A stretch of 64,000 nt of DNA from a virus (lineage: Duplodnaviria > Heunggongvirae > Uroviricota > Caudoviricetes): the IMG/VR virus record IMGVR_UViG_2531839202_000008, positions 4,798 through 68,797 of that record; one strand, 5' to 3'. Below the pieces are notes generated by a model. It had not been told where the DNA came from, did no database searches, and worked only from the letters and a program-made list of their open reading frames with translations. This document shows positions 42,679-45,469 of the stretch, piece by piece. Every line of letters begins with the position of its first letter. Position 1 is the stretch's first letter. The position numbers and the translations under genes were made by a program.

Positions 42679-42969
42679 GAATACAACCGCCCCTTTCAGC
42701 CGACGCTGAACGCGCCCCTGGGCAGATCATTACACACAGATGGTTGCCATGTCGAGAAAACCCCAGCTATTGAGTTAGCCACTTCAGCACGGGCTTGCAT
42801 CTCCGCTGGTAGACACAGCATGAAGACCCTCGTGCGGTACCGCGATCTTGGAGCAACATCGACCATGGGACGCCACGTCTCGGTCGGCGGGTCGGCCAGT
42901 GTTCGCCAGATCTTCATATCCTGACCGCGATCTAGCCGTCATGTCGGACTCTCGGCGTAAAACTCGCCC

Positions 42970-43377
42970 ATGGACGCATTCACGGCCATCTGCGAGGTCA
43001 TCAACGCAATCCCGGACTTCTTCCGGGAGAAGCGGCTCGTACGCAATGAGGTTAGGCAGGGTTGGAGTGACGAAACGGCGATCTTGTCGCAGGCAGAGAT
43101 CGCCGTGAAGGTGGCGCGGGCACTGTTGCACCGCCTCGGCGACAGGGGCTATCAGGTGGTCTGGCTGCCACCGGTCAATGAGGATGAATTCGGCACTCGC
43201 ACGGTGCAAGTACCGCTGTCCTTCCAGCCATGGGCCGACGGCGAAGTACGGCTCAACGAGCACGGTACGGGCGTAGTGATCGCACACGTACCGTCGCGGC
43301 TGCCCATACGGGATGCACCCCAGCTGGCAGCGGCACTGCTGGCAGCGCATCGTGCGACACGCACCAAACCGGAGTAA
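42970..43377 (+). CDS. Hypothetical protein near Phage A right end
   Basis: 135 aa ORF with typical codon bias. Confidence 0.4.
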   Translation: MDAFTAICEVINAIPDFFREKRLVRNEVRQGWSDETAILSQAEIAVKVARALLHRLGDRGYQVVWLPPVNEDEFGTRTVQVPLSFQPWADGEVRLNEHGTGVVIAHVPSRLPIRDAPQLAAALLAAHRATRTKPE

Positions 43378-43447
43378 CCGCTACTGACCTGCACATATGG
43401 CAAAATGAGTCCCAACATGTCGGTGGGATAACTATGTCCACTGCATG

Positions 43448-43478
43448 AAAACCCCGGCCTAGCTGGGGTTTTTGTCGT
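43448..43478. terminator. Intrinsic terminator (A-tract, CCCCGGC..GCTGGGG stem, T5)
   Basis: seen in sequence; lies at the inferred A/B genome junction. Confidence 0.5.
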
Positions 43479-43532
43479 TTCTGGGGCGATGTCCATTCCG
43501 CCCAACCTCATCCCTTAGCCCGAGGGGGACTC

Positions 43533-43694
43533 ATGAAGCGCACCATTGCCCGCGCGCTGCGCAGCCTTGCGAATCGTCTCGACCCGTCGCGCGGCTGGAC
43601 CGTCAAGGTCGAATATGCACATGCCGCGGCCGGGCGAAGCGCTGGTGACGAGTTCAGGCAGCGCATGCAAGCACCTGGAAACCCGTTCCTCTGA
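43533..43694 (+). CDS. Small hypothetical protein (53 aa), not in ORF track
   Basis: SD GAGGGGGA 5 nt before ATG; TGATG coupling to next gene. Confidence 0.35.
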   Translation: MKRTIARALRSLANRLDPSRGWTVKVEYAHAAAGRSAGDEFRQRMQAPGNPFL

Positions 43695-44095
43695 TGGCCA
43701 ATCAGCTCTTGGTGGATCTGCTCACCCGCACGTTCGCTTCGGGAGCCCTTCAACATCCCGGCGACGCAAACAGTCCCGCACGAGTGATTCCGATTCCCGG
43801 CTTCCGGTCGACCGGTATGCCTGATGATCAGGCGCAAGAAATGATTGGCCAGGCCGCAAAGCTCTGGGCCGAGGCCATCGAGTCGGTCATCGATGGCGAA
43901 TTCGACGTACTCACCAAAGCCGATGCGGCACAGCTGCGCCAGGACGCCGCAGAAGCGCCGGACGGCACCCGAATCGTCACGCTGTACGACCGCACCGACC
44001 ACCAGCGCGCCACGCCCTTGTTGGTGCTGACGGTCGGCAAGACCGACGACGTGACGATCGATACCCGTCAACTACGAAAGTTCCTAGCCCAATGA
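43694..44095 (+). CDS. Hypothetical protein (Phage B left arm)
   Basis: coupled to neighbours. Confidence 0.45.
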   Translation: MANQLLVDLLTRTFASGALQHPGDANSPARVIPIPGFRSTGMPDDQAQEMIGQAAKLWAEAIESVIDGEFDVLTKADAAQLRQDAAEAPDGTRIVTLYDRTDHQRATPLLVLTVGKTDDVTIDTRQLRKFLAQ

Positions 44096-44490
44096 GCAAT
44101 ATCAAGATCACCGTCGACGGCAAGGTCCTCATGGACACCGACCCGGGTAAGTGGCGTTCCACGCCGCCGGATATCCCCGACCTTAAACGCCAATCCGGCG
44201 GGCAGGGTTGGGGCCTGGCCGTGATGGTCACTCTCGCGCAGGCGGGCACGCTGGCCGAGCTGGGCCAGCCCATTGGGGATACCACGATGACCATCACTAC
44301 CCGCGCCAACGGCTGGACGCTGGATGTGGAGCAGGACGGCAGCGAGCCATCCGTCGCACCCGTCAAGGTCGCGCCAGCGCCTACTGCACCACCAGCGCAC
44401 GCCGAGGCCGATGCAAGCGCTGGCCGCCAGGGGTTTACGTCGGATGCGCTGATCATGGATGAGCCCTATGTCGCCGAGGCCCGGCCGTAA
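44092..44490 (+). CDS. Hypothetical protein
   Basis: ATGA coupling. Confidence 0.45.
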   Translation: MSNIKITVDGKVLMDTDPGKWRSTPPDIPDLKRQSGGQGWGLAVMVTLAQAGTLAELGQPIGDTTMTITTRANGWTLDVEQDGSEPSVAPVKVAPAPTAPPAHAEADASAGRQGFTSDALIMDEPYVAEARP

Positions 44491-44860
44491 GGCCAGCACC
44501 ACCGATCGCGGTCTGGGCTGGAAACACCAACAGCAAGCCGAAGGGCTGTTGCGCCGTCACGTAGACGGCACCCTGTGCTGGTGGTGTGGCCTACCGATGT
44601 TCAAAGCGCCCTTGCTGGAGCGCAACTGGGACCGCAAGCAACTGGCCGCAGACCATAGTCAGGCTCGGGCATTCGGCGGACAACGCGCCGATCGCCTACT
44701 GCACGGCATCTGCAACAGCCAGCGCCAGGACGGCAGACATGACGCGCACAGACCTGCGGTGCTCGACGTTCATCCATCCGAATGGTCCGGTGCCCTTGCG
44801 TCACTGGGCATCACCACCGCGCCCGTCATCACTACCGACAACCTGGCGATGGACTGGTGA
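44459..44860 (+). CDS. HNH endonuclease (terminase-associated type)
   Basis: CWWCG ... H..N ... HGICN HNH-like spacing; position next to terminase genes. Confidence 0.6.
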   Translation: MSPMSPRPGRKASTTDRGLGWKHQQQAEGLLRRHVDGTLCWWCGLPMFKAPLLERNWDRKQLAADHSQARAFGGQRADRLLHGICNSQRQDGRHDAHRPAVLDVHPSEWSGALASLGITTAPVITTDNLAMDW

Positions 44861-45309
44861 CGCTCTACCTGGTGACCGGCCCGCCTGCGGCCGGCAAGTC
44901 CACATGGGTACGACAGCACGCCAAGCATGGCGACATCACGATCGACTACGACGCCATCGCTTCGGTGCTCACGCCCGCGGGTGGAGATCCACACGACCCA
45001 CCCCAGCACATTCGCTCGGTCACCAAGGCTGCACGGCTGGCCGCGATCGATACGGCGCTGACGTTCGCGGACCAGTGCGATGTGTACCTGATCCACTCCA
45101 TGCCCGGGGAGGGACTGCTCGCGCGTTACCGATCCGCTGGGGCGCAGGTCATCACCATCGACCCTGGTCAGAGCGTGGTCCTGGCCCGATGCAAAGCCGA
45201 ACGACCGTGGCGCATGGCGCAGGCAGCAAAGCGGTGGTACGCCGACCAGTCGCACAGCAAACATCCCGACCCTGCCAGCAAACACGACGGAGGTGTGATG
45301 TCGTGGTGA
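44857..45309 (+). CDS. P-loop NTPase (AAA_33/zeta-toxin/polynucleotide-kinase-like)
   Basis: GTGA start; Walker A GPPAAGKST; Walker B-like VYLIHS. Confidence 0.6.
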   Translation: MTLYLVTGPPAAGKSTWVRQHAKHGDITIDYDAIASVLTPAGGDPHDPPQHIRSVTKAARLAAIDTALTFADQCDVYLIHSMPGEGLLARYRSAGAQVITIDPGQSVVLARCKAERPWRMAQAAKRWYADQSHSKHPDPASKHDGGVMSW

Positions 45310-45418
45310 TCGCCAGCCGATGGGCCGAAAAGCCCCTGACCAGCACCGATGCACACACCCGAAAGTGCCATAACCGCAGGTCAAAGCCCCTCCCCCTGAA
45401 ATTATCCAGGTGGGGGGC

Positions 45419-45458
45419 CTTCCTGACCCCCGGAGGCTCCCGTCAGGTTTTTTTTGAA
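45419..45458 (+). terminator. Hairpin CCTGAC..GTCAGG followed by T8
   Basis: seen in sequence, 12 nt upstream of terminase small subunit start. Confidence 0.4.
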
Positions 45459-45469
45459 CGCGGTGAGCG

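Follow-up and report, generated by a model that had tools for sequence, protein, structure and literature searches.

Whether two phage genomes meet end to end within this locus, and if so at which position, is the question raised by its gene order. The window (the whole stretch of DNA analysed, 64,000 nucleotides in length) is Mycobacterium abscessus DNA, and sampled pieces of it were 100% identical to draft contig AKUY01000032.1 of the isolate assembly GCA_000270845.1, the pieces compared lying over 13,052-42,485. It contains parts of two known prophage types, one prophiGD05-2-like and of cluster MabH (A) and the other prophiGD43A-3-like and of cluster MabC (B), a shared gene content below 35% being what separates such clusters (PMC8092301). 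An earlier note had proposed that two non-homologous morphogenesis modules, each belonging to a genome in virion gene order, abut at 42,679-45,469. The non-homology is borne out: A and B gave BLASTP E-values of 0.05 for the portal and 1.1 for the capsid, and their Pfam families differ (Phage_portal PF04860, Peptidase_S78 and Phage_capsid PF05065 in A; Portal_Mu PF06074, CLP_protease and Phage_capsid_4 in B). Judged by these comparisons, the head and tail modules of A and B are unrelated.

The proposed meeting point did not survive comparison with related prophages. Window 28,186-64,000 forms one 35,835-bp HSP to prophiGD43A-3 (99.2% identity) that crosses 42,679-45,469, with 0-1 mismatch per 500 bp over 29.3-47.5 kb and zero over 36.5-47.5 kb, and a conventionally integrated B copy in a sibling assembly is identical to the window over 29,144-42,485. 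The interval (42,679-45,469, plus strand) is internal to prophage B and collinear with prophiGD43A-3 genes 32-38 with no mismatch. It opens with a divergent intergenic region, the gene 32 homologue (42,970-43,377), a hairpin and four small genes, and closes with genes for an HNH endonuclease (44,468-44,860) and a polynucleotide kinase (44,857-45,309), a 55-aa gene and the cos site. The order that had been described for B (small genes, HNH, P-loop kinase, TerS, TerL, portal, ClpP-type protease, capsid) was seen, with a Pfam match to AAA_33 (E=3.7e-7) for the kinase; HNH, TerS and TerL had no match in Pfam, and their labels come from the prophiGD43A-3 annotation only. By this collinearity, 42,679-45,469 is an ordinary early-to-late gene boundary of B.

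The two features that might suggest a genome end in this interval were followed individually. An intrinsic-terminator-like hairpin 3' of gene 32 does exist at 43,448-43,478 (plus strand), where a terminator had been noted; it is strong and followed by a T-rich tail (folding energy −25.5 kcal/mol, z=−2.8, equalled by 1 of 200 shuffles), but it is B-internal and marks no genome junction. It was not listed by a consensus terminator scan, and direct folding confirmed it. The sole genome-end feature of the interval is cos, 28 bp upstream of TerS, where the joined ends of B-type virion DNA lie at 45,441|45,442 and read ...GGAGGCTCCC|GTCAGGTTTTTTTT...; in the alignment with phiGD57-1, a virion-order record, the last base falls on 45,441 and the first on 45,442. 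This cos is uncut, and B is not in virion order here: the phiGD57-1 ends are contiguous in the window, with B unbroken on both sides. Neither an integrase nor an att site was found beside 43.4 kb, the 364-aa ORF at 41,584-42,678 encoding a Q/P-rich membrane protein, and the window contains no tRNA.

The B-only part of the window (37,924-64,000, plus strand), which lies within the 35.8-kb HSP, begins with the end of the early region, a leftward cassette, the small genes, HNH, kinase, cos, TerS and TerL, and continues with a Mu-like portal, ClpP-type protease, capsid, tail genes, tape measure (55,598-59,224) and minor tail genes. The leftward cassette (39,993-42,678, minus strand) has a lower G+C content (about 0.60), corresponds to prophiGD43A-3 genes 28-31 and encodes a 268-aa HTH-like protein, proteins of 185 and 72 aa and the 364-aa Q/P-rich membrane protein. 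A 328-aa protein at 38,838-39,824 has its start codon uncalled in the NCBI drafts. Sibling contigs are identical to the B part up to 42,485 (AKUZ ctg16) and over 52,714-64,000 (AKUP ctg20), and 13 MabC records span at least 80% of window 43,000-64,000, so that the relatedness to MabC rests on these records together with the HSP. The window does not hold a complete element running from attL to attR at attB-12 or attB-13, its MabC left end being supplanted by the A left end and its right end lying past 64,000. Siblings showing the B left end were retrieved through the Band_7 protein described below, and in AKUZ01000016.1 the left end that belongs to B shares about 80% identity with the window over 28,186-29,143 and shows no relation to it to the left of 28,186.

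Phage A reaches less far than the 43.4 kb or so assigned to it by the earlier note: A-only sequence stops at 29,143, and 37,924-43,400 is B. The right-hand 24.5 kb of A (1-24,502, plus strand), recognised from its match to prophiGD05-2 (record 17,724-43,869, 96.6-99.7% identity), from Pfam and from sibling contigs of 100% identity, carries the late genes (portal, S78 protease, capsid, tail genes, tape measure at 7,005-10,871 and minor tail genes), followed by lysin A/B, holin, a remnant toxin-immunity cassette and the integrase. The segment holding only the A left end (24,503-29,143, plus strand) encodes a cro-like HTH protein, a 163-aa protein, a Bro-N/ANT antirepressor, small genes and most of a RecE-like exonuclease. 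It shows 0-3 mismatches per 500 bp against the prophiGD05-2 left end and is identical to AKUX01000010.1, where it comes after attL and the chromosomal SelR gene. An identity to prophiGD05-2 of 96.6-99.7% from 1 to about 29,000 places this part of the window with MabH, the cluster that includes prophiGD05-2 and prophiGD36-2.

The two A segments are joined at the A att site in attP configuration, an imperfect 25-bp common region (24,494-24,518). Agreement with the window extends to 24,518 in loci on the attR side and begins at 24,494 in loci on the attL side, and aligning the window with both attL (AKUX) and attR (AKUZ) gave a strict core, CAACTCAATT, at 24,503-24,512. This attP is base-perfect and is located inside an intact repressor gene (24,424-24,807, minus strand), which spans the core and encodes the full-length, 127-aa virion form of the A immunity repressor. 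The 314-aa tyrosine integrase of A (23,052-23,996, minus strand; PF00589, annotated as a tyrosine integrase in prophiGD05-2) is one small gene distant from it. Integrase and repressor are internal with phage genes on both sides, as had been noted; of the further claim that both genomes are in virion order, the part on A stands, since A is joined in attP order, whereas B is collinear with prophiGD43A-3 in prophage order.

This layout resembles integration-dependent immunity, which was reportedly first described by Broussard et al. in 2013 in mycobacteriophages BPs, Brujita and Charlie: the attP core of A lies within the repressor ORF, the tyrosine integrase lies just downstream, and the repressor is C-terminally shortened at attL in the siblings. 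Integration introduces a stop codon at attL that makes the repressor 26 residues shorter, giving 101 aa (...SDKLS*) in AKUX and AKVC versus 127 aa in the window; the repressor of GD05 has been called as 98 aa, and across the whole collection just 3 contigs have the exact 127-aa form. Use of integration-dependent immunity by A and B explains why attP is inside the repressor gene and the integrase occupies the extreme right of the prophage. At the C-termini, the A repressor ends in -GESERIAS and the integrase in -DLPA, unlike the ssrA-like -AA ending that is reported for several, but not all, immunity groups (PMC8092301). The same study, which cites integration-dependent immunity as its ref. 40, states that the virion-form repressor confers no immunity (PMC8092301).

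The transition from A to B is set by a perfect 8,780-bp repeat (29,144-37,923, plus strand) that is present in both prophages according to their sibling copies. It encodes RecT-like, YfdP, DUF2303, Band_7, DnaQ-like exonuclease, PAPS-reductase-like, HNH and RepA-like initiator proteins, and its right end holds the 5' part of a 400-aa HTH gene. The conventional A copy (AKUX ctg10; AKUP ctg19) equals the window through 37,923 and diverges from 37,924, while the conventional B copy (AKUZ ctg16) is identical to the window from 29,144. By these alignments the contig switches from A to B somewhere within 29,144-37,923, and the boundary suggested at 43.3-43.6 kb gives way to two seams, the attP at 24.5 kb and this switch. 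Position 31,553, at which three contigs end, was also considered as a repeat boundary and was rejected upon the base-level comparison. The starts of AKUY ctg32 and AKUZ ctg15 both fall within the repeat, about 335 bp from its right end, and the end of AKUP ctg19 is at the equivalent of window 37,624; dangling contig ends of this kind are what a collapsed repeat gives. The perfect identity of the copies indicates that A-type and B-type phages exchanged DNA recently.

The sibling assemblies, which may come from serial isolates of one patient, contain both prophages at chromosomal sites. AKUX ctg10 runs in the order chromosome, SelR, attL, A left end, repeat, A-specific DNA, TerL and portal; the attL side of A is also found in AKVC ctg6, and its attR side in AKUZ ctg15 and AKVC ctg7. 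The sibling attL is in the 3' end of SelR, whose C-terminus is swapped for phage-derived residues, and the sibling attR adjoins the same chromosomal genes as in other MabH lysogens, flanks by which we assign the A site to attB-8, the 3' end of the msrB/SelR gene MAB_2979. AKUZ ctg16 carries a conventional B with its own attL side, beside PNPOx and the S10 operon, and this location beside the S10 ribosomal operon is consistent with attB-12. AKUP ctg19 (878 kb) has A at its start and chromosome, attL(C) and the B left end at its end. A and B are about 830 kb apart in the siblings, which fits the spacing from attB-8 (MAB_2979) to attB-12 (MAB_3824). The suggestion that neither genome is permuted by integrase is contradicted by these siblings, in which both are conventional attL...attR prophages.

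The attP seam is represented unevenly among the assemblies. In six of the seven sibling contigs with a lineage-specific 65-aa scar ORF, the A integrase is followed by attR and chromosome, and the attP continuation after this ORF was found in one of the seven, the AKUY contig only. AKUY and AKVA, which are independent assemblies, both carry the attP seam and the path from the A left end through the repeat to B. AKVA ctg11 has its start just 223 bp to the left of the seam, the kind of position to be expected if attP-type and attL-type reads branch there. A reference-free Logan contig, SRR341942_118 (window 21,495-26,595), spans the seam with no break; its ends match no repeat or shared 31-mer, suggesting thin coverage and making the unbroken seam weaker evidence. 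Its lack of branching could be taken as a strong sign that attL and attR are absent, a reading that the implied thin coverage downgrades.

Among the explanations listed in the earlier note, a misassembled contig is the best supported by the sibling assemblies, from which we infer for the AKUY isolate that the layout is most likely a chimeric draft-contig path leading from A into B through the 8.8-kb identical repeat. One isolate would carry two temperate prophages, A of about 42 kb and B of about 51 kb. The contig proceeds from the A late genes through the A integrase to the A attP, which joins the right end of A to its own left end and restores the full-length repressor, and then from the A early genes through the 8,780-bp A/B-identical stretch to the B-specific early genes and the B late genes. 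The attP join, being base-perfect, must derive from phage A that was genuinely present in the DNA preparation in excised, circular or concatemeric form, and the exit from the repeat on the B side would most likely be an arbitrary assembler choice at an unresolved repeat. A chimeric path requires that the attP form be abundant in the DNA preparation for attP reads to win. The sharing of seam and path by AKUY and AKVA would also be expected of a real structural variant and speaks against such a path.

We reasoned that a real variant of this type would be a composite in which excised circular A had recombined homologously via the 8.8-kb segment into prophage B, catalysed by host RecA or the phages' own RecE/RecT, and consider it rather unlikely for the isolate. 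The corresponding state, possibly in AKVA too, of a MabH circle residing 830 kb away from its own attB, inside a MabC prophage, is similarly doubtful. Such a composite would read attL(B)-B-left-repeat-A-specific-A late-int-attP(A), followed by A-left-repeat-B-specific-B late-attR(B), with attB-8 left empty. It predicts what AKUY and AKVA contain, namely an intact attP and an A left end joined via the repeat to B-specific DNA, and it fits the dangling start of the AKUY contig at the right end of the repeat, the recent exchange implied by perfect repeat identity and the unbranched Logan contig; homologous recombination has been held plausible for the tandem prophages of strain T36 (PMC9934374). 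However, the right end of A is at its normal attR in six of the seven sibling contigs, and if AKVA is among these six, attR and seam would occur together, which is impossible for a pure composite genotype; the AKVA ctg11 break likewise implies a branch. Moreover, a virion-form repressor, reported to be non-immune (PMC8092301), should make the state unstable, and a perfect 8.8-kb repeat is a place where short-read assemblers make arbitrary joins. A tandem made at one attB by two successive integrase events, as in prophiT36-2a/2b, with the 24.5-kb site as a hybrid attR(A)/attL(B), is very improbable. Tandems with integration-dependent immunity are known in M. abscessus (PMC9934374) and the junction here is at the att core with no extra DNA, but both arms of the seam are A, its right side being identical to the A attL end (AKUX, AKVC), while the true left end of B is a different sequence at a different attB some 830 kb off and the change to B comes only through the shared repeat. 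Two complete prophages sharing one attB with a hybrid att between them are not what the window contains. Hardly any credence is left for two virion-order genomes, A extending to about 43.4 kb and B from there on, through concatenation or end-to-end insertion. The hairpin at 43,448-43,478, mosaic breakpoints of several MabC relatives at about 43,384 and about 43,700, and the B cos 2 kb downstream would all suit such a border; nevertheless, complete prophage records obtained independently, like the sibling contigs, run collinear across it without a mismatch, neither integrase nor att site is present, and the virion ends are instead joined at 45,441|45,442.

With the chimeric path as the preferred reading, the locus is mainly cautionary: co-resident mosaic prophages with long identical segments can mimic phage-phage fusions in draft contigs when phage that has excised spontaneously also contributes attP junction reads, and a module boundary with a terminator can pass for a genome end. 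MabH and MabC prophages, integration-dependent immunity and a cos beside HNH and TerS have already been described in M. abscessus. A true composite would give this pathogen a second case of tandem prophages, mechanistically different in arising by homologous rather than site-specific recombination, and would place an integration-dependent-immunity phage in the chromosome with its own attP unused and its repressor in the virion form.

Among the closest known systems, prophiGD43A-3 (MW584182; MabC) has its record 3,259-39,088 collinear with window 28,186-64,000 at 99.2% identity, almost without mismatches from 29.3 kb, and the same gene order (early, leftward cassette, small genes, HNH, kinase, TerS, TerL, portal, protease, capsid, tail), and phiGD57-1 (MW314852), its virion-order relative, has cos at the same position. 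By contrast, the first 3.2 kb of the prophiGD43A-3 record (truncated repressor, HTH, antirepressor and genes 4-8) is missing from the window, where the A left end stands instead; over 28,186-29,143 the RecE-like gene of the window is a divergent allele, at about 80%; and prophiGD43A-3 occupies attB-13, whereas the sibling copy of B has the S10 operon as its neighbour (consistent with attB-12). For A, window 1-24,511 corresponds to 17,724-43,869 of prophiGD05-2 (MW584191; MabH, attB-8) and window 24,510 to about 29,000 to record 1 to about 4,500, near-perfectly; the attB-8 flanks (in the siblings) and the layout of integrase and split repressor also agree, and phiT45-1 (MW570842) has in its virion order the window's succession of late genes, int, attP, rep and early genes. 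The window differs from prophiGD05-2 in having the two ends of the record joined (attP), in being MabC-type past 29.1 kb, with PAPS-reductase-like and HNH genes replacing methyltransferase and acetyltransferase, in having most of the polymorphic toxin gene deleted, and in a replaced minor-tail segment (18,045-19,522). With prophiT36-2a/2b (PMC9934374) it shares two different, adjacent integration-dependent-immunity prophages that flank an att site and a repressor gene and have segments in common. The T36 sequence is complete, and strains T38 and T48 are reported to have the same tandem pair (PMC9934374). In T36, however, one attB serves both prophages and the central site is hybrid, whereas the central site of the window is a pure attP of A, B's own left end is absent from it, and the siblings put A and B about 830 kb apart.

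Nearly all genes of the window lie on the plus strand, with a G+C content of 60-68%, and no tRNA gene was found in the 64 kb. A megablast search against phage records identified the window as prophage DNA from Mycobacterium abscessus, belonging to two clusters already described. Positions 1-24,511 match the right 26 kb of prophiGD05-2 (MabH, attB-8), while positions 24,510-33,483 match the same prophage from its base 1 onward; a single 35,835-bp alignment (99.2%) then assigns 28,186-64,000 to prophiGD43A-3 (MabC), with cluster and attB assignments taken from PMC8092301. These matches show that the parts of the window are two known prophages, here called A (prophiGD05-2-like) and B (prophiGD43A-3-like). 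By exact-protein lookups, the draft contig AKUY01000032.1 (GCA_000270845.1) was 100% identical to the window at all sampled places between 13,052 and 42,485, and the window would span about 4,799-68,798 on it.

The earlier note had placed a junction of two phage genomes at 42,679-45,469. Two morphogenesis modules are indeed present and unrelated (E=0.05 for the portal pair and 1.1 for the capsid pair), with differing Pfam families: Phage_portal, Peptidase_S78 and Phage_capsid in module A, and Portal_Mu, CLP_protease and Phage_capsid_4 in module B. The hairpin at 43,448-43,478 was also confirmed. The interval is not a junction, however: mismatches between the window and prophiGD43A-3 number 0-1 per 500 bp over 29.5-47.5 kb and 0 over 36.5-47.5 kb. 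The interval corresponds one-to-one to genes 32-38 of prophiGD43A-3 (hypothetical proteins, an HNH endonuclease, a polynucleotide kinase and a small gene), immediately upstream of TerS, showing that the site is internal to one known prophage. The physical ends of phiGD57-1, a B-type record in virion order, map to 45,441|45,442, 28 bp 5' of TerS; in the window they are contiguous, so that the right edge of the interval contains the cos site of B, uncut as expected inside a prophage, and the HNH and kinase genes lie at the right end of the virion map of B.

The left-hand neighbour of this interval, the ORF at 41,584-42,678, encodes a low-complexity membrane protein and not an integrase. Many MabC relatives match the window only rightward of 43,384 or about 43,690-43,712, which marks the neighbourhood of the terminator hairpin as a place where mosaic breakpoints recur, with variable early regions on one side and the conserved late region on the other, and may explain why the site resembled a boundary. 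A leftward cassette (39,993-42,678, minus strand) of lower G+C (about 0.60) lies between the early and late genes of B. Its 364-aa protein, annotated solely as 'membrane protein', has a hydrophobic segment at the N-terminus and a second, Gly/Ala-rich one at the C-terminus, along with a long low-complexity region rich in Q and P and a coiled-coil-like stretch; it may be a prophage-expressed moron.

The actual seams lie at two other places. At 24.5 kb, a three-way alignment of the window with the attL of AKUX01000010.1 and the attR of AKUZ01000015.1 gave attR on the left side and attL on the right, meeting in an imperfect 25-bp region that contains the strict common core CAACTCAATT (24,503-24,512), showing this site to be the precise attP of phage A. 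The attP restores the 127-aa virion form of A's repressor, as opposed to 101 aa in the attL form, and the layout is exactly that of prophiGD05-2 and prophiGD43A-3, both annotated with integration-dependent immunity. The integrase (23,052-23,996) and repressor (24,424-24,807) do sit internally, as the earlier note held, because the site is the attP of a phage with this layout. The virion-form repressor ends in -GESERIAS (24,424-24,510) and the integrase in -RRLDDLPA (23,052-23,060); both lack the ssrA-like -AA ending that several integration-dependent immunity groups are reported to have.

A repeat forms the second seam. Conventionally integrated copies of A (AKUX ctg10; AKUP ctg19, upstream of A late genes) equal the window over 24,503-37,923 and diverge from 37,924 into A-specific HNH, TerS, TerL and portal genes. 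The conventionally integrated copy of B, AKUZ01000016.1, shows no relation to the window left of 28,186 and about 80% identity over 28,186-29,143, and equals it from 29,144 on, up to 42,485 or further. These limits define a perfect 8,780-bp repeat (29,144-37,923) connecting A and B, which the window enters from A and leaves into B.

In near-identical sibling assemblies, both prophages are conventional and distant from each other. AKUX ctg10 runs from chromosome (GT87, SelR) through attL, A-left, the repeat and A-specific DNA to TerL, portal and onward, and AKVC ctg6 has the same attL side. AKUZ ctg15 and AKVC ctg7 run from A late genes through int and attR into chromosome, the flank being that of other MabH lysogens. 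AKUZ ctg16 leads from the S10 ribosomal operon and PNPOx through attL to B's own left end, the repeat and B-specific DNA. AKUP ctg19 (878 kb) has A at its start and chromosome, attL and B-left at its end, which separates A and B, in direct orientation, by about 830 kb, in agreement with attB-8 in MAB_2979 and attB-12 at MAB_3824. A lineage-specific 65-aa scar ORF in A's toxin cassette occurs in seven contigs, all sibling; six run from integrase through attR into chromosome, and only AKUY01000032.1 runs into the attP seam. The positions of contig ends are those expected from a collapsed repeat: AKUY ctg32 and AKUZ ctg15 start about 335 bp inside the repeat's right end, heading into A-specific DNA, AKUP ctg19 stops at a point equivalent to 37,624, and AKVA ctg11, which likewise passes from A-left through the repeat into B, starts just 223 bp left of the attP seam, resembling a read-length overhang next to a branch.

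We consider it probable that the layout is a chimeric assembly path. The apparent abutment of two phages does not exist at the flagged coordinates, and the genome itself probably lacks it as well. The DNA preparation would have contained phage A in excised, circular or concatemeric form, in sufficient amount for its attP reads to enter the assembly, and the assembler, left with one collapsed copy of the repeat, would have connected A-left to B-specific DNA through it. In M. abscessus cultures, attP formed spontaneously is a common finding (PMC9934374, Table 3). The leading alternative, a true composite in which recombination through the repeat brought a phage-A circle into prophage B, predicts an identical contig, and it draws some support from the sharing of both features by AKUY and AKVA and from a Logan contig spanning the seam. 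However, six attR-bearing siblings and the branch-like break in AKVA count against it, and a chromosomal phage with the virion-form repressor alone is expected to be unstable, leaving the composite unlikely. The evidence contradicts a T36-type tandem integration mediated by Int, since both seam arms belong to A and B's own left end is located elsewhere.

All real features have been described previously: prophages of clusters MabH and MabC, integration-dependent immunity, the position of HNH and cos next to TerS, cassettes for polymorphic toxins near attR, and early-gene blocks exchanged in a mosaic manner.

The repeat, shared by co-resident prophages of different clusters, has 0 mismatches over 8,780 bp. 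The MabH reference prophiGD05-2 differs from the window by at least 3% over this span, carrying a methyltransferase and an acetyltransferase in place of the window's PAPS-reductase-like and HNH genes. A recent exchange by recombination or gene conversion is suggested, either between A and B themselves or with a close relative of B as A's partner. Two alleles of the RecE-like exonuclease gene at 28,186-29,143, A-type in the window and B-type in AKUZ ctg16, are about 80% identical and become identical at 29,144, putting the repeat's left edge inside a recombinase gene. Three contig ends (AKVC ctg6 end; AKUP ctg19 and ctg20 starts) coincide at window-equivalent 31,553 inside the repeat, where neither a homopolymer nor an internal repeat was found; they may mark the edge of an assembler unitig or reflect a third partial copy at another genomic location.

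Relative to prophiGD05-2, the minor-tail segment at 18,045-19,522 (a 384-aa Gly_rich_2 protein and a 130-aa Gp80-like protein) is swapped; it also occurs in other M. abscessus prophages, some MabC-context loci among them, and may be an exchanged host-range module. The polymorphic toxin and WXG-100 genes are mostly deleted from A (prophiGD05-2 40,399-40,884 and 41,045-42,301), leaving a 162-bp remnant (window 22,797-22,958). The 189-aa immunity ORF (22,144-22,713, minus strand) is still open and thus has the appearance of an orphan immunity gene.
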